DNA from: a virus
Reading direction: 5' to 3' (one strand)
DNA length: 37,698 nt
Virus record (IMG/VR): IMGVR_UViG_3300045988_118522
Location: 1 to 37,698 of that record
In this document: positions 9,493-37,698 of the stretch, one piece after another
Layout: each line of letters opens with the position of its first letter
Numbering within the stretch: the stretch's first letter is position 1
Notes under the pieces: generated by a model
The model's input: the letters and a program-made list of their open reading frames with translations, nothing else
Database searches by the model: none
Told to the model about the DNA's origin: nothing
Program-made: the position numbers and the translations under genes

Positions 9493-10803
9493 TTATTCAA
9501 TTTTTTCTGCTTTCATGCCTGTAAACTTCTCCCATCGTGCTATTATGACGTCGCAATAGTGCGGGTCAAACTCCATCGTATAATTCTTCCGCCCGAGCTG
9601 CTCGCAAGCCATCATCGTGCTTCCGGAACCGCCGAACAAGTCAAGGACTATCTGACCTGGTCGAGAACTGTTGTGGATGAGTTGCCCGCAAAGCTCCAGC
9701 GGCTTCATCGTCGGATGCAGGTCATTCCTTAGCGGCTTGTCGGCATCTATGACATCTGTCGGCACCGGTGATGCAAGCATGTTCTTCAGCATCTCCTTCA
9801 GTTCATCCTTCTTCAGTTTGTCGACGTCAACATTGTCTTCAATGACTGTCGGATGGTTGAATTCGTCTCTGAACCAATGTCCTGCTCCTTGTTTCCACCC
9901 ATACAGGCAAGGCTCGTGCTTCCACTTGTAGTCCTGCCTGCCGAAAGTAAAACCATTCTTGTTCCAGATCAGCGTTTGCTTGACTTCGAGACTTCCTGTC
10001 TTGGCGACCGCCTCCCTGAAGTTAAGTTCTTCGCTATGCGAATACCAGATGTAGAAGGCTCCACCTGGCTTGAGAGCATTGGCGGCATTATTCATTGCGC
10101 CTGAAAGGAATTTCCTGAAGTCCTCCTTGGCCATGTTGTCATTCTGAATGGTCATTCCCTGCGAGTTGGAAACGTTGACATTATACGGCGGGTCAGTGAG
10201 CATCAGGTCAGCCTTTATTCCACCCCCCCCCATCAACTTTCTTACATCCTCTTCTGAGGTAGAATCCCCACACATGAGCGTATGCTCGCCGAGCTGCCAA
10301 AGGTCGCATTTCGCACAGCGTGCCGGAATTTCCTCTTTCTCCTCATCAAAGTCATCTTCCTTTGCCTTTTCTTCAGCCTCCTTGATGCTGTCCTGCCACT
10401 CCGGAGGTATCGGCACACCCCAGCCTTCCAAGTCCATGTCGCTCCATTCATTCGCCAGCGCGTCAAAATCCCAGTCACCCATCGAGACGTTATCCTTCGC
10501 CACGATCTGCTTCTTCTTCAGGATGGAGGTTCCCTCCGGCACGACATAGCACGGCAGCTCGGACATGCCCAGAGCCTTGCACGCCGCATAGCGCATGTTT
10601 CCGCCGAGGCAGACATACTTGCCCTCGTGGTAGTCGACGATGCAGCCGCGCGCCTCCAGCAGCTCCGGAGTCTCCTCGATGGATGCCTTCAGATTGTCGA
10701 GCTGCGCCTTGGTCCACTGCCTAGGGTTGGACGGCAGTCCGGCAATCTGTCCAGTATTCATCTCTATCAGATCAATGGCTATTCTTTGGTGTCCTGTTTT
10801 CAT
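9493..10803 (-). CDS. ParB-like nuclease domain fused to a DNA methyltransferase (N6-adenine or N4-cytosine, beta class)
   Basis: ParB-N-like N-terminus, DPPY motif (LMLTDPPYNV), and a C-terminal FGGSGST SAM-binding motif. Confidence 0.85.
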   Translation of the reverse strand: MKTGHQRIAIDLIEMNTGQIAGLPSNPRQWTKAQLDNLKASIEETPELLEARGCIVDYHEGKYVCLGGNMRYAACKALGMSELPCYVVPEGTSILKKKQIVAKDNVSMGDWDFDALANEWSDMDLEGWGVPIPPEWQDSIKEAEEKAKEDDFDEEKEEIPARCAKCDLWQLGEHTLMCGDSTSEEDVRKLMGGGGIKADLMLTDPPYNVNVSNSQGMTIQNDNMAKEDFRKFLSGAMNNAANALKPGGAFYIWYSHSEELNFREAVAKTGSLEVKQTLIWNKNGFTFGRQDYKWKHEPCLYGWKQGAGHWFRDEFNHPTVIEDNVDVDKLKKDELKEMLKNMLASPVPTDVIDADKPLRNDLHPTMKPLELCGQLIHNSSRPGQIVLDLFGGSGSTMMACEQLGRKNYTMEFDPHYCDVIIARWEKFTGMKAEKIE

Positions 10804-12733: not shown

Positions 12734-13126
12734 TTATAATTCTACGTTGTTTGCCAATTCCGTATATCCCCCAAGCCGCAAGAGCTGCTGCAGCTCGTGC
12801 ACATAGTGAACGTTTGCGCTTGGACCAGTTGGTGGATTAAATATCCTGATTGCGATGATGTAGCCATCTTCTCCGTCCTCATCGAGGATGCTGTTTCTTT
12901 CAGTCCAGTAGAGGATGTCTTCGTCAAAGTCGTTTTTCTTGAAGAACTCATCCGTCAGGAGAATAGGGCACGGACTACACTCCTTGTCTTCAAACTCCAT
13001 CCAGTCGTAGTCGTTTTCATCGTTTTTTTCGGCATAGGCGTAGGTATAGCCGACGGATATGACCTGCATAGGGAATCCGTTCTCATCGGCAATCCAGTCG
13101 CCGACCATTAGTTCATTGCATTTCAT
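12734..13126 (-). CDS. Hypothetical protein
   Basis: 130-aa acidic ORF on the same strand. Confidence 0.6.
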   Translation of the reverse strand: MKCNELMVGDWIADENGFPMQVISVGYTYAYAEKNDENDYDWMEFEDKECSPCPILLTDEFFKKNDFDEDILYWTERNSILDEDGEDGYIIAIRIFNPPTGPSANVHYVHELQQLLRLGGYTELANNVEL

Positions 13127-13494
13127 AATTTTTCAAAATAAAATTTACCATCCCATTTTTGCTCCGTCAGAATCCCGAACTTGAGCGCCAGCCGTGCTGC
13201 AAATGTTCGCTTGTAGTCAAGTTCCTTTGCAAGTCTCTTCCGGAATTGCTCGATCGTTGACATCCCCTTATAGAAGTTGCACATGCGGCAGGACGGGTTG
13301 TAATTCTCGATGCTGTCCTCTCCCACACCACCCAAGTGCCTTTCCGCCGTTGTCTCGTTGTTTCGGCACTTGGGCTTGATGTGGTCAACCTGCATATCCT
13401 TGTAGTCAATCTCGCAGCCACAATATGCGCAATGCCCGTTGTACTTCGCATAGACCGCTTGGCGGATAAAACCATTACTAACTTTCTTCGTCAT
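13123..13494 (-). CDS. HNH endonuclease
   Basis: CAYCG...DHIKP...N..PSCRMCN forms an HNH/zinc-finger motif. Confidence 0.85.
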   Translation of the reverse strand: MTKKVSNGFIRQAVYAKYNGHCAYCGCEIDYKDMQVDHIKPKCRNNETTAERHLGGVGEDSIENYNPSCRMCNFYKGMSTIEQFRKRLAKELDYKRTFAARLALKFGILTEQKWDGKFYFEKL

Positions 13495-14345
13495 TAGTCA
13501 AACAATGTATATTTTCCTAAGTTTTGCGGTACGCCCAAAATAAAGTCATATATAAAGTTCCTTGCGTAATCGCTTGAAATCATCGACCTTTCTTCTGAAC
13601 ATATCCCCGCCTTTATTCCGCTTTTCGCTGAATAGATGGTCTTTGGGTCTTTATCATCTTGCAATGTAAAGCCGTGTTTCGGTTCAAAGTTCACGAACCA
13701 AAATCCGGTAGGCTTCACGAAATAATCTCCACGTAATAGCCTGTTCTTGTCAATAATGGTCGGATTCTCGACAAAATTATTCGGCAGATAAGTAAGACCG
13801 CTCATTGGATTCTCAAATACCATCCTTATCCCTCTTTCCTTGACAACCGCAAATAACTTGATTGCAAGTCTATAAAAATGCTCTCTATTCGCAGAACGTT
13901 CAAGAATCTTATCCGTTTTTTCGTGGATGCTTAATTTTTGATAATTTTTATTGTTCCACGAAAACAAAATCATGCTATTCTGACAAAAGTAAATACAAGG
14001 GAAAAACGCCTTACAATATCTCCATCTTGCCCCCCCCAGGCTGTCCTAAAAGTCCTCGCGAGACTAAAATGCTCCGTACCTCTATACAAGGCCAAAGCGG
14101 ATTTTCGATTCTCACTGGGGAATGTTTGACTTTTCAGACAGTCTCCCCCTAATTTTGTCGAAAATGCTCGGTTCATAATTATATGCCTTTTCAATCTCGG
14201 CGAAAATGTCAATAACATTATCCGTTTGTCCGAAATTGTTTTGGATGTCATAGTCCTCGGCAGGAATACCAAGTTTAATAAACTCGTTCTTGAAAGTTCC
14301 GCTTTGCTCGAATAGGCAATGCGCGCGATTTATTCGAACTGCCAT
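13494..14345 (-). pseudogene. Disrupted C5-cytosine-methyltransferase-like gene (frame pattern A/B/A)
   Basis: The N-terminal part has CLFEQSGTF (motif I-like). The C-terminal part has AFFPCIYF and VFENP. Between about 14020 and 14150 the middle is open only in another frame, and frame A there has 4 stops (1 TGA, 3 TAG). Confidence 0.55.
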
Positions 14346-14347
14346 GG

Positions 14348-14737
14348 CTATTCCTCCCATCTGATTTGAATTGTGTCCACGACATAATCCGGACGCTCTG
14401 TCAACGCCTGCTCACGTGTCGGGTGGATAACACCACCCACGAGAGAGAAATGTTTGTCGTCTCCATACTTGCAGACGTTCATCCAGCCTACTTTTTTAAC
14501 TTTCGGTTCCGGCGCGAAGAATAAATCACATGGGCACGGCCCCTCATCCATCCAAAAGTATTCGCCATTTTCACTGAACTTCATTACTGCTTCACCTTCT
14601 TCATTCCGCACAAGAGCAACAATTGGTTCATCCTCATCGTCTCTATCCGTGCAAATAATCCTTACACTGTTGCCGTCTCTCGTGACAATCGGTCTGGTGG
14701 GGTTCTTGAGATATTCTGCCAAACTGAATTGTTCCAT
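14348..14737 (-). CDS. Hypothetical protein, paralog family A (copy 2)
   Basis: Shares EYLKNP..IVT.DG.S.RIICTDR..PIVALV...DLFFAPE..GW.NV...DTI.I.WEE with the gene at 15214..15588. Confidence 0.7.
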   Translation of the reverse strand: MEQFSLAEYLKNPTRPIVTRDGNSVRIICTDRDDEDEPIVALVRNEEGEAVMKFSENGEYFWMDEGPCPCDLFFAPEPKVKKVGWMNVCKYGDDKHFSLVGGVIHPTREQALTERPDYVVDTIQIRWEE

Positions 14738-14739
14738 AA

Positions 14740-14976
14740 CTATTCCTCCATTGCTTTTTGGAAATCTTCTATCATCTGTTCATCATCATACCAACAATTG
14801 TCATGCATTGAACTATCCTCATAGTAGTTCTGGGCATTCTCCTTTAACCACTTTACTGCCTTTTCAATCATCCATTTTGCTCCCTGAACAAAACCACTTT
14901 CATACAATCCATAACCTTCTTGCCATTCATGCGGTTCAAAAGGGCTAGAGGTGTTTGCTTTTTCTTCTATTGTCAT
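14740..14976 (-). CDS. Hypothetical protein, paralog family B (copy 2)
   Basis: Start at MTIEEK (14976), after the upstream stop. Shares GA.WM..IEKAV.W.K...F.KAMEE with the gene at 14978..15211. Confidence 0.6.
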   Translation of the reverse strand: MTIEEKANTSSPFEPHEWQEGYGLYESGFVQGAKWMIEKAVKWLKENAQNYYEDSSMHDNCWYDDEQMIEDFQKAMEE

Positions 14977-14977
14977 A

Positions 14978-15211
14978 TTATTCCTCCATTGCTTTTCTAA
15001 ACCTATTCTCGTAATCTTCAAACCAAGATATTCCTATCTCTTCCTTTTGACGCTTGAACCACTCGACAGCTTTTTCTATCAATTCTGATTTCATCCACTG
15101 TGCACCATCAATAAAAGCATCTTCGAGGTCACCTTCATCGACATCTCGATAGACTCCGAAGTATATTGACCTTTCATTCCTGTAATCTTTTGCTTTTGCA
15201 CTGATTTTCAT
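14978..15211 (-). CDS. Hypothetical protein, paralog family B (copy 1)
   Basis: Start at MKISAK (15211), 2 nt after the upstream TAA. Confidence 0.6.
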   Translation of the reverse strand: MKISAKAKDYRNERSIYFGVYRDVDEGDLEDAFIDGAQWMKSELIEKAVEWFKRQKEEIGISWFEDYENRFRKAMEE

Positions 15212-15213
15212 AA

Positions 15214-15588
15214 TTATTCCTCCCATTCTATCTTGATCGTGTCAAGAAGCCCTACGCCGCTGTAACCCGCAATCGCTTCTTCCTTTGTCGGATAGACCGC
15301 GCCCGTGTAGGTGATTTCCCCAGCGTTGCCTTGTGCTATCCGGCTGACATTAATCCAGCCTGTTTTCTTCTCCGGAGCAAAGAACAAATCCCTTGAGGAT
15401 GGGGCATCGTCGCCAAAATATTGGCCTTCTTTTGTATAACAGTTCACAGCAGCTGCTTCCCCTACGAGTGCCACTATGGGGTAATCAGGATTTCTGTCAG
15501 TGCAAATTATTCGTGCGCTTTCCCCGTCACTTGTTACAATCTTTTTTTGGGGATTCTTAAGATATTCTTGTAAGTCAAATTGTTTCAT
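15214..15588 (-). CDS. Hypothetical protein, paralog family A (copy 1)
   Basis: 124 aa; see the gene at 14348..14737. Confidence 0.7.
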   Translation of the reverse strand: MKQFDLQEYLKNPQKKIVTSDGESARIICTDRNPDYPIVALVGEAAAVNCYTKEGQYFGDDAPSSRDLFFAPEKKTGWINVSRIAQGNAGEITYTGAVYPTKEEAIAGYSGVGLLDTIKIEWEE

Positions 15589-15593
15589 AATCT

Positions 15594-15746
15594 CTATTCT
15601 TCAGGTTCAACTAATAAAATGTCGTCGTGACTGACGCGATAGTAATGTCTGACTGCATCGGCAGCATCTTCCGCAGACTCCGCCTCGACATAAGTTGTCG
15701 TTACATTGTCAAATCCGCTCTTTCTGAATGTTACTTTGTAGTTCAT
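15594..15746 (-). CDS. Small hypothetical protein (50 aa)
   Basis: Hand-translated as MNYKVTFRKSGFDNVTTTYVEAESAEDAADAVRHYYRVSHDDILLVEPEE*. An ATGA overlap links it to the upstream HTH gene. Confidence 0.4.
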   Translation of the reverse strand: MNYKVTFRKSGFDNVTTTYVEAESAEDAADAVRHYYRVSHDDILLVEPEE

Positions 15747-15979
15747 TTTTCTTTAGATTTTTCGATTATTTCGATTGTTTGCCACGTCATCCAGACGAGC
15801 GTCGGAATGCCGAACACCTTTTCAAGCTGCGCTGCGTATGCGGGAGTTATTTCCCTTTTGCCCGTGCACAGCGCATTGAACGTCGGAGGACATATCTTCG
15901 CCTCATTAGCTGCCTGCACCTGTGTCTTCCCGCTGAAGATGATGGCTTTCTGCAGAAAATCATTTAGTTTCATTGCCAT
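15743..15979 (-). CDS. XRE-family HTH protein (HigA/VapI-like)
   Basis: 78 aa; GKTQVQAANEAKICPPTFNALCTGKREITPAYAAQLEKVFG is an HTH_3-like segment. Confidence 0.7.
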   Translation of the reverse strand: MAMKLNDFLQKAIIFSGKTQVQAANEAKICPPTFNALCTGKREITPAYAAQLEKVFGIPTLVWMTWQTIEIIEKSKEK

Positions 15980-15982
15980 AAT

Positions 15983-16645
15983 CTATTCCTCCTCCTTGTA
16001 TTCGTCCGTCGTGCCTAAGAGTTTCCACGTGTGCTCGTTGAGTGGAACGCACTGGCTATATACTGCGGAAAAGCAAACATACGGATAGATTTCCCCTTCG
16101 TTGTAGAAACAAAACTTGTCGAAGAGCCAAAACTTACCCTCGTCTCTCACCAGCACCTTGTCACCCTTCTTGAACGGGCATTTCTCCTTTTCCTGCTCAG
16201 CGAGTAATTGCTGCTCGTAGTCCGTGAGGATGAGTTTGAAATCATCTACAAGTGTGTCGATTGGCAACGTTAAAACTTGGAAGTTTTTTAATAGAAACAC
16301 TACCTCACCCAGTTTCGCGGCAATCACGTAAACAAGTTCTGGGTCAAGCGCACAGCAGACGCGGTCACCCACCTTCCAGTCGGTGTAAGTCTCTGGATTG
16401 CGAGGAACTATTTCCAGATCGTGCTTCTCCGCCCATACGCTAAAATCTTCTATGGTTCCGCAACGCTCGTAGCTTCTTGTTACAATTTGGAGACTGCTAT
16501 TAAAAGATTCATTTTCATCAGTGAAGACATACACCACACATCCTTCTCCTTCTTTCGCAACTTTTAGATAGCCTGTCATTACTTCGCCCTCGTCACCTTT
16601 CGCCTTGAATTGCAAGTTGTTGCATTTTGAAAAATCGTATTTCAT
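15983..16645 (-). CDS. Hypothetical protein with two K.GD.V SH3/Tudor-like segments
   Basis: 220-aa ORF ending in KEEE. Confidence 0.65.
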   Translation of the reverse strand: MKYDFSKCNNLQFKAKGDEGEVMTGYLKVAKEGEGCVVYVFTDENESFNSSLQIVTRSYERCGTIEDFSVWAEKHDLEIVPRNPETYTDWKVGDRVCCALDPELVYVIAAKLGEVVFLLKNFQVLTLPIDTLVDDFKLILTDYEQQLLAEQEKEKCPFKKGDKVLVRDEGKFWLFDKFCFYNEGEIYPYVCFSAVYSQCVPLNEHTWKLLGTTDEYKEEE

Positions 16646-16651
16646 AATTTT

Positions 16652-16807
16652 CTAATCTTTTTCGTTGATTTGTTTAATTCTGAACCAGTCAATGTCGTGT
16701 TCGCGCAACCCGAACCATTCAATCACGTCCTCTTTGGTTGCGTCCGGCTTGTCGTAGGTTCTGGTCATAACCCTGCCGTGCTCCGAGAATGTCGCTTCAA
16801 ACTTCAT
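16652..16807 (-). CDS. Small hypothetical protein (51 aa), possible paralog of the gene at 15594..15746
   Basis: Hand-translated as MKFEATFSEHGRVMTRTYDKPDATKEDVIEWFGLREHDIDWFRIKQINEKD*. Residues TF..G..T.TY...ED...HD.I are shared with the other copy. Confidence 0.4.
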   Translation of the reverse strand: MKFEATFSEHGRVMTRTYDKPDATKEDVIEWFGLREHDIDWFRIKQINEKD

Positions 16808-16927
16808 GTACCTTCTTAAATTTTACTAACATTTTTGTTACTTTCTATTGTCGTTGTTGCTGTCAAGCGGAAGCGAATACAACGTCAGCGCTACCGCTAT
16901 GAGCACAATTATAATTGCAGTATTCAT

Positions 16928-17461
16928 TTACTCTCTAAAATCAAATTTTGATATGTCCTCGTCACTGAACCGAGTTCCTTTCTTGAGCCTCTTCAGGCCT
17001 CTGAAGACCTTCTCCATGCCGCCTTCCACCTCGCCCCTGTCAACGCAGAGCATGAGCATCTGGATGATTTCGGCGGAGCTGTGGTTGAAGTCGTCAGAAG
17101 CCTTGACTCCATAGCTCTCAAGCGTGCAGTCTGTGATGAACTTCTGAAGGTCGCGCTCAAACCAGTACATCGCCGCCTTGACCTTCTCGCTGTAGTTCTT
17201 CATGCCCCTGATGATGTCCCCGTCGGCATTCGTCGTGGAGCACTTGAGGCCCATCGAGCGAATCTCCGCACGGATGTCCCTGTCGATATGCTCTATCAGA
17301 ATCTCGAGGGCATTCGCCGTGACCATCCCGAGTTTCACGAGGTCGGGAATCTTGGAGCCCGACACCTTCTGCCAGGCCTTCTTGCGGAGGTCCTTTCGGA
17401 ACTCCTCCACGTTCTTCTTCGCCTGCTCCTTTGTGATTGATTTTTTTTGCAACATTTCCAT
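16928..17461 (-). CDS. Hypothetical protein
   Basis: 177-aa ORF on the same strand. Confidence 0.65.
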   Translation of the reverse strand: MEMLQKKSITKEQAKKNVEEFRKDLRKKAWQKVSGSKIPDLVKLGMVTANALEILIEHIDRDIRAEIRSMGLKCSTTNADGDIIRGMKNYSEKVKAAMYWFERDLQKFITDCTLESYGVKASDDFNHSSAEIIQMLMLCVDRGEVEGGMEKVFRGLKRLKKGTRFSDEDISKFDFRE

Positions 17462-37253: not shown

Positions 37254-37610
37254 TTATCTTGAATTTATAAAATCTTCGAGCATCTTGTTCAGTTCCTTGC
37301 TTTCGTCAGCCGTGACGCTCCAATCTCCGTCCTTTGCCCTTGCGGCCTCCGCTTCCTTCTCCCAGCCGAAAGGCACCCAGAGCGCGGGTGTCGAAGGCTT
37401 CTGTTTCACGTAAGGATTCATCCTCATAGAGAGGAACATCTGCCATCTCGCCCTCTCCCATCGCCTCCGTTCCTCGTTTTCCGCAGCCTCCCTGAGCAGG
37501 AGGAATTCCCTCATCGTTGTCCTTCCGGCTTCTTCTTCCGTCTTCCGGCAATGCCCGACCAGAAACGCCTCAATGCCGTCGTAATCGAGCCAAAGCGAAA
37601 TTTTTTTTTT
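37254..37610 (-). CDS. gpT-like -1 frame extension of the tail chaperone (expressed as a G-T fusion by frameshifting)
   Basis: The -1 frame is open from the A10 tract to the stop at 37254 (...ISLWLDYDGIEAFLVGHCRKTEEEAGRTTMREFLLL...). The stop lies 1 nt before the tape measure ATG. Confidence 0.65.
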   Translation of the reverse strand, partial: KKKISLWLDYDGIEAFLVGHCRKTEEEAGRTTMREFLLLREAAENEERRRWERARWQMFLSMRMNPYVKQKPSTPALWVPFGWEKEAEAARAKDGDWSVTADESKELNKMLEDFINSR

Positions 37611-37698
37611 GATTCCTTCTTCTCTTTCTCGGCTTCCGCGAGCTCGACCAGGCTCTTGCCTGAAAGCAGCTTGATTGCCTTTGCGACTATGCGCCCGA
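37511..37698 (-). CDS. C-terminal part of the gpG-like chaperone (continuation of 1..361 across the junction)
   Basis: The zero frame continues ...KKKFRFGSITTALRRFWSGIAGRRKKKPEGQR* and stops with TGA at 37511..37513. Confidence 0.7.
   Translation of the reverse strand, partial: GRIVAKAIKLLSGKSLVELAEAEKEKKESKKKFRFGSITTALRRFWSGIAGRRKKKPEGQR
37600..37698. repeat. Terminal direct overlap, copy 2
   Basis: Identical to 1..99. Confidence 0.95.

Follow-up and report, generated by a model that had tools for sequence, protein, structure and literature searches.

DNA methyltransferases can be phase-variable through simple-sequence repeats, as in the phasevarion mod genes of Haemophilus, Neisseria and Moraxella and in restriction-modification genes of Helicobacter, which carry poly-G/C tracts (PMC6902483, PMC4209511). 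The locus described here comes from a virus. It lies on the minus strand, at 14345..13494, of a stretch of 37,698 nucleotides (nt), positions 1 to 37,698 of IMG/VR record IMGVR_UViG_3300045988_118522; this whole stretch is called the window. The locus is very probably a twice-hit pseudogene: a phage C5-methyltransferase-like gene with an ON/OFF tract of eight G residues (G8), which was split by a repeat resembling a miniature inverted-repeat transposable element (MITE) and then suffered a 1-nt deletion.

Like the phasevarion methyltransferases, the family of this gene has a homopolymer inside the open reading frame (ORF), one length of which is in frame while changes of +/-1 truncate the product, and ON and OFF states occur among near-identical genomes. 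Unlike them, it is phage-encoded and orphan (no restriction gene is seen adjoining), it is 241-252 amino acids (aa) long, and it is C5-like rather than a Type III Mod. Switching is inferred here from differences between assemblies, no regulon effect is implied, and in the window the switch is dead.

Phages also carry such loci. Receptor-binding genes of Campylobacter Fletchervirus contain hypermutable poly-G, according to what is reported of Sorensen et al. 2021, Cell Rep 35:109214, as cited in PMC12823448. A preprint (PMC12633550) deals with contingency loci of T2/T4 and also mentions a poly-G tract within the methylase gene of a Bordetella phage. The present tracts resemble these loci in being runs of G7-G11 in phage ORFs, with frameshifted sub-populations and one precedent in a phage methylase gene. 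They differ from the Campylobacter phage tracts in belonging to gut Bacteroidales phages, in lying in a methyltransferase-like gene and not a tail or receptor-binding gene, and in occupying several tract positions per family.

Classic examples of MITEs are the Correia elements of Neisseria and the 107-bp RUP of S. pneumoniae. Prokaryotic MITEs common to hosts and their phages are a described phenomenon (PMC11602168). The repeat in the window has much in common with these: it is about 107 nt long and non-coding, it has inverted ends of about 17 nt, it occurs at many mostly intergenic sites with filled and empty alleles, and the copy in the phage matches those of hosts at 93-96% identity. Unlike known MITEs, it is flanked by a near-constant GGGGG and a G-rich run instead of a variable short target duplication, and it forms head-to-tail arrays spaced by G5-G8.

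The Ancestral Gene and Its Two Lesions

The disrupted gene (13494..14345, minus strand) matches the profile phrog_757 and has an ancestral ORF of 246 codons. Three-frame translation places both of its halves in the same frame (A), which is closed between them by four stops (TGA, TAG, TAG, TAG). The N-terminal part, MAVRINRAHCLFEQSGTF...SIFDKI(R) at 14150..14345, contains CLFEQSGTF, in which FEQSGTF resembles motif I, and an acidic segment, EDYD. The C-terminal part (13494..14009) runs from AFFPCIYF, with a motif IV-like Pro-Cys, through the motif VI-like VFENP and RLLRGD to the stop; AFFPCIYF sits 5' of the first ATG in the C-terminal ORF. An earlier reading, made from the letters of the window alone (the sequence-only reading), had listed CLFEQSGTF, AFFPCIYF and VFENP and their placement, together with a G5 run (C5 on the plus strand, 14145..14149), a G8 run (C8 on the plus strand, 14030..14037), the four stops and an open frame B, and all of them are present.

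When the two halves were joined and used as a query, about 7,800 homologs were retrieved, the majority 241-252 aa long. Intact close homologs (246-252 aa) read ...SIFDKIRGGQDGDIVMAFFPC... at this place, and the closest read ...YEPSIFDKIRGGQDGDIVMAFFPCIYF.... The DNA of one intact relative (L002) reads AAAATT-A-G8-CAAGATGGAGAC...ATAATGGCC, its tract starting as A-G8-CAAGAT, while the window reads AAAATT-A-G5-(107 nt)-G8-CAAGATGGAGATATTGTA-A-GGCG. Two lesions are therefore visible. One is an insertion of 112 nt, composed of the G5 run and a 107-nt core (14038..14144), which shifts the frame by +1. The core is absent from intact and G9 relatives. The other is the loss of one T between 14011 and 14010, which turns GTAATGGCG into GTAAGGCG and shifts the frame by -1; the lost letter is the T of the ATG (Met) before AFFPC, and at this point reading returns to frame A.

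The frames of the window follow these lesions. IRG, read in frame A, finishes within the G5 run; GGQDGDIV follows in frame B right after G8, and AFFPC is again in frame A. The true coding continuation QDGDIV (CAAGATGGAGATATTGTAA, 14011..14029) is thus stranded in frame B, where GGQDGDIV matches IRGGQDGDIVMAFFPC of intact homologs. A 100-aa ORF in frame B (13970..14272) is an artefact made of an out-of-frame N-terminus, translated repeat and the true QDGDIV segment. The sequence-only reading had placed both frame changes at poly-G tracts. This is not confirmed: the A-to-B shift is due to the 112-nt insertion, with G5 as its left edge, and the B-to-A shift to the loss of a T, 19 nt downstream of G8.

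When 14038-14149 is removed and the T is restored, the result is a 246-codon ORF that aligns without gaps, end to end, with intact homologs (96% identity to P0152, 94% to P0001). Since undoing both lesions gives this gapless ORF, G8 is the wild-type, in-frame length of the tract, which codes for part of R-G-G. The suggestion of a pseudogene, one of three offered by the sequence-only reading, is borne out for the window copy by the inserted 112 nt and the lost T. The switch itself is inoperative in the window: G8 already has the in-frame length, and the break consists of an insertion and a 1-nt deletion.

The probable history of the locus is as follows. The natural gene has 246 codons, with the G8 tract (AGG GGG GGG, R-G-G) shortly before the Pro-Cys motif. 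In relatives this tract would act as a slipped-strand ON/OFF switch, in frame at G8 and out of frame at G6, G7, G9 and G10. In the lineage of the window, a MITE-like repeat with many copies in uncultured Bacteroidales of the gut, the likely hosts, entered the tract at its 5' edge, shifting the frame by +1 and splitting the gene. A sub-lineage that includes the window later lost one T 19 nt downstream, which regains the original frame, but only past the four stops within the insert.

The Insertion Lineage in Other Assemblies

The split gene is not peculiar to the window. At least 17 contigs, drawn from ENA, JGI, Logan and NCBI, have an N-terminal ORF whose stop lies within the insert (P0121/P0122). 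In the eight loci that were fetched (L004-L011) the insert is 100% identical and its left run is always G5, as in the window. Five of the eight have an intact ATG with G8, one has an intact ATG with G9 (L010), and two lack the T (L005, L007). Counting the window, GTAAGGCG occurs in three of nine sequences; every uninserted relative has GTAATGGCG, as do L004, L006 and L008-L011. Contigs with the insertion form a clonal lineage, with an N-terminal part that is 100% identical and a C-terminal part that varies by the T indel and one single-nucleotide polymorphism. The closest uninserted alleles examined are 94-97% identical to it. A second deletion within a sub-lineage is as expected for a gene that was already inactivated.

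In ATG-intact alleles, frame B runs through the insert into the whole C-terminal domain. Gene callers have called a chimera here: P0140 (L011 1501-2259), a protein of 252 aa in ENA and NCBI records from a Hadza metagenome. Its N-terminus is read out of frame, translated repeat follows, and the rest is the genuine C-terminal domain.

A MITE-Like Repeat at G Runs

The core of the insert ends in terminal inverted repeats, AGACTGTCTGAAAAGTC at 14144-14128 and GACTTTTAGGACAGCCT at 14054-14038. When AGACTGTCTGAAAAGTC is compared with the reverse complement of the other end, AGGCTGTCCTAAAAGTC, 14 of 17 positions match. Many host copies have a perfect inverted repeat in their outer eight bases, AGACTGTC...GACAGTCT, and the end sequence of the repeat can be given as AGACTGTCYGAAAAGTC. 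No further copy of the insert was found within the window, and blastn of the insert against 50,697 GenBank phage records gave no match. Scans of IMG/VR with a core 24-mer, the inverted-repeat pattern and protein P0001 found nothing.

Copies are found in bacterial genomes. The inverted-repeat pattern, run against 185,579 species genomes, picked out full-length homologs in Bacteroides sp. CAG:545 (five copies on five scaffolds), CAG:770 (three in tandem) and Alistipes sp. UMGS648 (one). With the copies from more than 100 gut metagenome loci added, identities span 77-96%. Those of CAG:545 and CAG:770 are 77-93% identical to the window copy over the full length. No methyltransferase homolog was found near the copies of CAG:545, CAG:770 or Alistipes. 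A metagenome scan gave at least 119 loci, nearly all from the human gut, and nhmmer identified at least 128 copies in them. At least 88 copies are full-length, with at least 74 distinct flank pairs, in metagenomes of the human gut and in Bacteroidales genomes. Host copies lie between short ORFs and are mostly intergenic in appearance. Solo left ends of the repeat are truncations.

The copies adjoin G runs. Among the matches listed, identity to the window copy reaches 96% outside phages; of 73 distinct sites, about 90% have GGGGG as the left flank, often with a T before it, and the run is exactly five G in 48 of 74 sites; the right flank starts with G in 68 of 73 sites and is G-rich for 5-9 bases, with a G run of 0 to 9. 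Copies also occur in head-to-tail arrays in which G5-G8 is the only spacer. The phage gene supplies a filled and an empty allele, G5+107+G8 in the window and G8 alone in L002. One host locus supplies a second such pair with the same signature, having two copies spaced by G7 or G8 (in two samples) against three copies in CAG:770, where the extra copy lies in that spacer run as G5, copy, G6. The repeat is thus small and non-coding, has terminal inverted repeats, is multicopy at unrelated loci and shows filled/empty polymorphism. It is a MITE-like repeat that seems to seek G runs. The literature on MITEs in Bacteroides yielded nothing specific to this repeat.

Samples differ at one host site in the G run on the right side of the copy, which is G4, G5 or G6 (L048, L049, L083, L084, L104, L106, L119). 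The runs that adjoin the element are therefore themselves length-polymorphic.

As RNA, the insert can fold into a long hairpin of -34.5 kcal/mol. A covariation test over 83 copies kept the terminal stem and three short hairpins, with an alifold value of -7.2. A structured-RNA function of the repeat was considered and is unsupported, the consensus folding being weak and the z-score of the single-stranded DNA fold being -1.3. Searching 13400-14500 against Rfam at E<=10 produced chance hits only, all outside the insert, and no intron or ribozyme family.

Two other sets of sequences touch on the repeat. In five metagenome contigs (L058, L062, L067, L082, L093) its left 27 nt are joined, at the same junction, to an IstB-like (IS21 helper) gene of which the 3' part is present; this fusion is a rearrangement or truncation and no evident autonomous partner. 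In 28 loci within L012-L046, returned by the genome scan with the inverted-repeat pattern and coming from Planctomycetota, Anaerolineae, Spirochaetes, Paenibacillus, Flavobacteriia and others, there are elements of 90-113 nt with unrelated interiors, some of them in several copies per genome. All they have in common is the stem GGGGCTGTCCAAAAAGTC...GACTTTTTGGACAGCCCC, with bounds (G/A)GGGCTGTC..AAAAGTC ... GACTTTT..GACAGCCC(C/T). They were rejected as homologs of the repeat (nhmmer E>0.01, no real homology) and may be convergent hairpins or distant MITE families with a common transposase-binding end.

Homopolymer Tracts in Relatives

A G/C run of at least 8 in 37.7 kb is in itself not improbable. 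The significance of the G8 run comes from comparative data and not from its length. Among consensus assemblies of relatives, the tract is G7 in L166 (frameshifted), G8 in L002 (intact), G9 in L001 and L003 (frameshifted) and G10 in L167-L169, from three samples (frameshifted). A G6 allele is inferred from protein P0179. Counted over the listed cluster members, a subset, the frame is kept (A-G8) in about 22 contigs and shifted in about 29. The variable tract length that the sequence-only reading had supposed is thus real in relatives, with four lengths taken from DNA and one from protein, and the tails of N-terminal fragments in protein clusters encode the same tract classes. G8 and G9 also occur within the clonal insertion lineage (L010 has the insertion and G9), and in one further lineage the run is shortened via an AGG-to-ATG change. 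G8 and its G7, G9 and G10 alleles are runs of at least 7 nt in an ORF that is truncated by +/-1, and the length differs among close relatives while the flanks are conserved.

Other lineages of the family, 48-65% identical, have homopolymers of their own at other codons. One is a poly-C at APPQ, found with identical flanks in 40-100-kb contigs (L180-L190). Its C9 allele is intact and gives 241 aa (P0228, which occurs in 57 index blocks). The products are cut to 157 aa with C10 (31 blocks) and to 155 aa with C8 (21 contigs). Another is a G9 upstream of SVFDNITKDD (L191-L194), where the gene is split in 18 contigs. A third lies before KAGICS in cultured B. fragilis phages (L170-L177). Here BF10P2 has G7 and is in frame; BF8P1, BF10P1 and BF10P3 have G10 and a truncated coding sequence; BF766P1 has G8 and is also truncated; UZM3 and B40-8 have short or interrupted tracts and are in frame. 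A literature search on the cultured BF phages found nothing specific to this gene.

Long G/C runs that arose four times independently in a family of about 39% GC, with neighbours of +1 and -1 around the in-frame length, show the pattern of a contingency locus. The idea of a phase-variable gene, also raised from the window's letters, therefore fares well for the family, given the G6-G10 alleles and the three other tract sites, but not as the cause of the break in the window.

A Second Methyltransferase Gene and a Second Insertion

The window has only one other G/C run of at least 7 nt. This is a C9 run at 10223-10231, inside an ORF on the minus strand (9493..10803) that encodes 436 aa with a DPPY motif. 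The tract codes for MGGGGIK and is in frame. A cluster relative of the product bears the source name 'adenine specific DNA methyltransferase'. Each of the two methyltransferase genes of the window holds one of its only two G/C runs of this length. No frameshifted alleles of the tract were found among relatives, 15 of 15 listed members of a 27-member cluster being full length. P0185 has two Gly fewer at the MGGGGIK tract.

In the same 90% cluster, the 474-aa protein P0197 has an in-frame insert of 37 aa exactly at the glycine run. All 37 of these residues are identical to a translated host copy of the repeat (L131:179-286), from a different subfamily. The repeat family has therefore entered the G tracts of the two methyltransferase genes in this group of phages. 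The case of P0197 would be a second and independent invasion, in frame, of an N6/N4 methyltransferase gene.

Protein Family Assignment

The protein obtained by joining the halves matches phrog_757, 'DNA methyltransferase', at E=8.3e-15, its N-terminal part covering profile positions 16-63 and its C-terminal part 79-216. The two halves map next to each other on the profile, which leaves no room for a middle segment of 37 aa. The structure of P0001, an intact homolog with 94% identity, was modelled with AlphaFold 2 (AF2) at a predicted local distance difference test (pLDDT) of 83 and a predicted template modelling score (pTM) of 0.82. Among the predicted structures of BFVD, this model matches an S-adenosylmethionine (SAM)-dependent methyltransferase at 4.6e-8 with a template modelling (TM) score of 0.54, and several phage C5-cytosine methylases at 1e-6 to 7e-4; TM scores reach 0.55 overall.

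An alignment of 40 sequences of the family has F17-E18-Q19-S20-G21, P84, C85, E146, P148, R170 and R173 invariant and N147 at least 90% conserved. The order FEQSGTF, FFPC, ENP, R..RGD is invariant or nearly so in the 40 homologs. We take FEQSG, FFPC, ENP and R..RGD to be C5-methyltransferase motifs I (FxGxG), IV (Pro-Cys), VI (ENV) and VIII (RxR), respectively. At 241-252 aa, these proteins appear too short for a typical target recognition domain. The protein is classed as methyltransferase-like, probably of the C5 type, with DNA methylation as its predicted activity.

Alternative Explanations

The sequence-only reading had rejoined the gene by removing one G from the G5 run and adding one to the G8 run. 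The arithmetic is right: with the two edits the 852 nt make 283 codons and a stop. Frame B is open in the middle, and in a related phage an uninterrupted ORF of 474 aa does read through a copy of the repeat. A gene that is still switchable in this manner, yielding a functional 283-aa methyltransferase that includes the middle, is nevertheless very improbable. The middle 37 aa are translated mobile repeat and are missing from intact homologs. The added G replaces the conserved QDGDIVM with ARWRYCK, and the nearly invariant Asp before AFFPC (at least 90% conserved) disappears. Slippage at the first run is contradicted by the presence of G5 in every insertion-bearing contig, and five G are a poor slippage substrate. 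Two simultaneous slips would be required, and the B-to-A shift is a plain 1-nt deletion, absent from the sister contigs that keep the ATG. The 283-aa product is not the ancestral protein. An error of homopolymer sequencing or assembly in an otherwise intact gene had been proposed as well, and both runs are indeed homopolymers in a metagenomic assembly. The break is an insertion of 112 nt with a 1-nt deletion outside any homopolymer, not a change in run length, and at least 17 contigs, the work of different projects and assemblers, share the identical structure; for practical purposes this explanation is excluded. Hardly more can be said for the skipping of the insert, either as a tiny intron or by a ribosomal hop from GGG in the G5 run to GGG in the G8 run, through which ATG-intact alleles would make the wild-type protein. 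Removal of 112 nt, or such a hop, does restore the wild-type IRGGQDGDIVMAFFPC in these alleles, and the insert RNA does fold into its long hairpin of -34.5 kcal/mol. T4 gene 60 is the known example of translational bypassing, with a 50-nt gap and GGA...GGA. The present locus resembles it in having a coding gap in a phage gene between identical glycine codons (GGG...GGG here). It differs in that the take-off codon is not followed at once by a stop, that the gap is 112 nt and consists of a multicopy host repeat, and that a third of the alleles examined are further frameshifted. A bypass of this type was considered and rejected as a working model. Skipping in general is opposed by the lack of any intron or ribozyme family match, by the intergenic, multicopy nature of the host copies, which do not lie inside genes, and by a weak consensus structure in which the terminal stem alone of the hairpin is kept. 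Matching GGG codons arise automatically on insertion into a G run, and the further frameshift in three of nine sequences would defeat the rescue and fits relaxed selection. Skipping is accordingly given a very small chance.

A more serious rival denies the switch altogether. Frequent OFF alleles could reflect the one-way, irreversible decay of a dispensable accessory gene whose homopolymers, as mutational hot spots, mutate first. OFF alleles are many, and the lineage of the window has truly decayed. Set against this are G/C runs of 7-10 nt at four or more codon positions, in different lineages of one gene family of 39% GC; flanks of ON and OFF alleles that are identical over the compared stretches; the occurrence of both +1 and -1 states (C8/C9/C10, G7/G8/G9/G10); an intact state that is still common (P0228); and the location of the window's only long G/C runs in its two methyltransferase genes. 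Decay without a switch is unlikely, though it has far more to recommend it than the explanations above. A twice-hit pseudogene of a gene with a G8 switch is preferred.

Several results pull the other way from this preferred account. Pfam gave no hit at E<=1, PF00145 DNA_methylase included; NCBIfam gave none for the three intact homologs searched; a PDB sequence search with repaired and intact proteins gave no meaningful hit. The fold matches of the P0001 model in PDB are weak (best E=6e-3, MET1 7.5e-3, DNMT3B about 2e-2) and mixed with Rossmann oxidoreductases. As to the repeat, the G5 may be either borne by the element or a target duplication of 3-5 bp blurred by slippage, and the two are indistinguishable. 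The fetched loci contain no informative empty host site except the tandem-array case, and in about 1 Mb of them there is no transposase or autonomous partner with the same ends. The single-stranded DNA hairpin of the repeat is not unusually stable (z = -1.3). The methyltransferase family named by the sequence-only reading, then, is favoured by the phrog_757 match and the BFVD folds and not by Pfam, NCBIfam or PDB sequences; with the joined protein positive for phrog_757 and negative in Pfam, the assignment stays at the level of family and fold.

Meaning and Genome Context

The window should be annotated with one pseudogene, rather than with three ORFs or a chimeric 252-aa protein. The gene belongs to a very abundant accessory family of gut Bacteroidales phages (over 7,700 hits), in which ON/OFF homopolymers have arisen independently at no fewer than four positions. 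Culturable members, among them B40-8-like phages, make the family a tractable test of whether contingency loci let phages hedge between hosts that differ in restriction or in defences dependent on methylation. With 93-96% identity to host copies, the insert ties an uncultured phage of about 37.6 kb to an uncultured group of Bacteroidales.

The strict association of the repeat with G runs suggests an uncharacterised mechanism of target selection, to which contingency tracts would be open as sites of invasion. A joint reading can be offered as a tentative and somewhat doubtful possibility. A G-run-homing element that inserts at the edge of the run, brings its own G5 and favours contingency tracts might have hit both methyltransferase genes independently, locking one OFF (the window) and adding an in-frame loop of 37-38 aa to the other (P0197). 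The family would have evolved homopolymer switches repeatedly, as bet-hedging against host restriction or methylation-dependent defence. Each component is of a known kind; the combination is that of recurrent switches in one phage family with a repeat that invades the tracts of two genes.

The first 99 nt of the window are exactly the same as nt 37600-37698, and sister contigs are 37,676-37,756 nt long. This terminal identity of 99 nt indicates a circular assembly with a k-mer overlap and a genome of about 37,599 bp.

The region 13000-17000 is a module of 42-44% GC in a genome of about 51%, in which the methyltransferase-like gene is followed by a gene of HNH type and accompanied by several small ORFs. 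It may be a mosaic early-gene cassette. The gene downstream is a 123-aa ORF on the minus strand (13123-13494), whose orthologues in sister contigs match HNH models of Pfam faintly to weakly. The ORF starts with an ATG that overlaps the stop codon of the methyltransferase-like gene (TAATG), and its translation may once have been coupled to that of the gene upstream.

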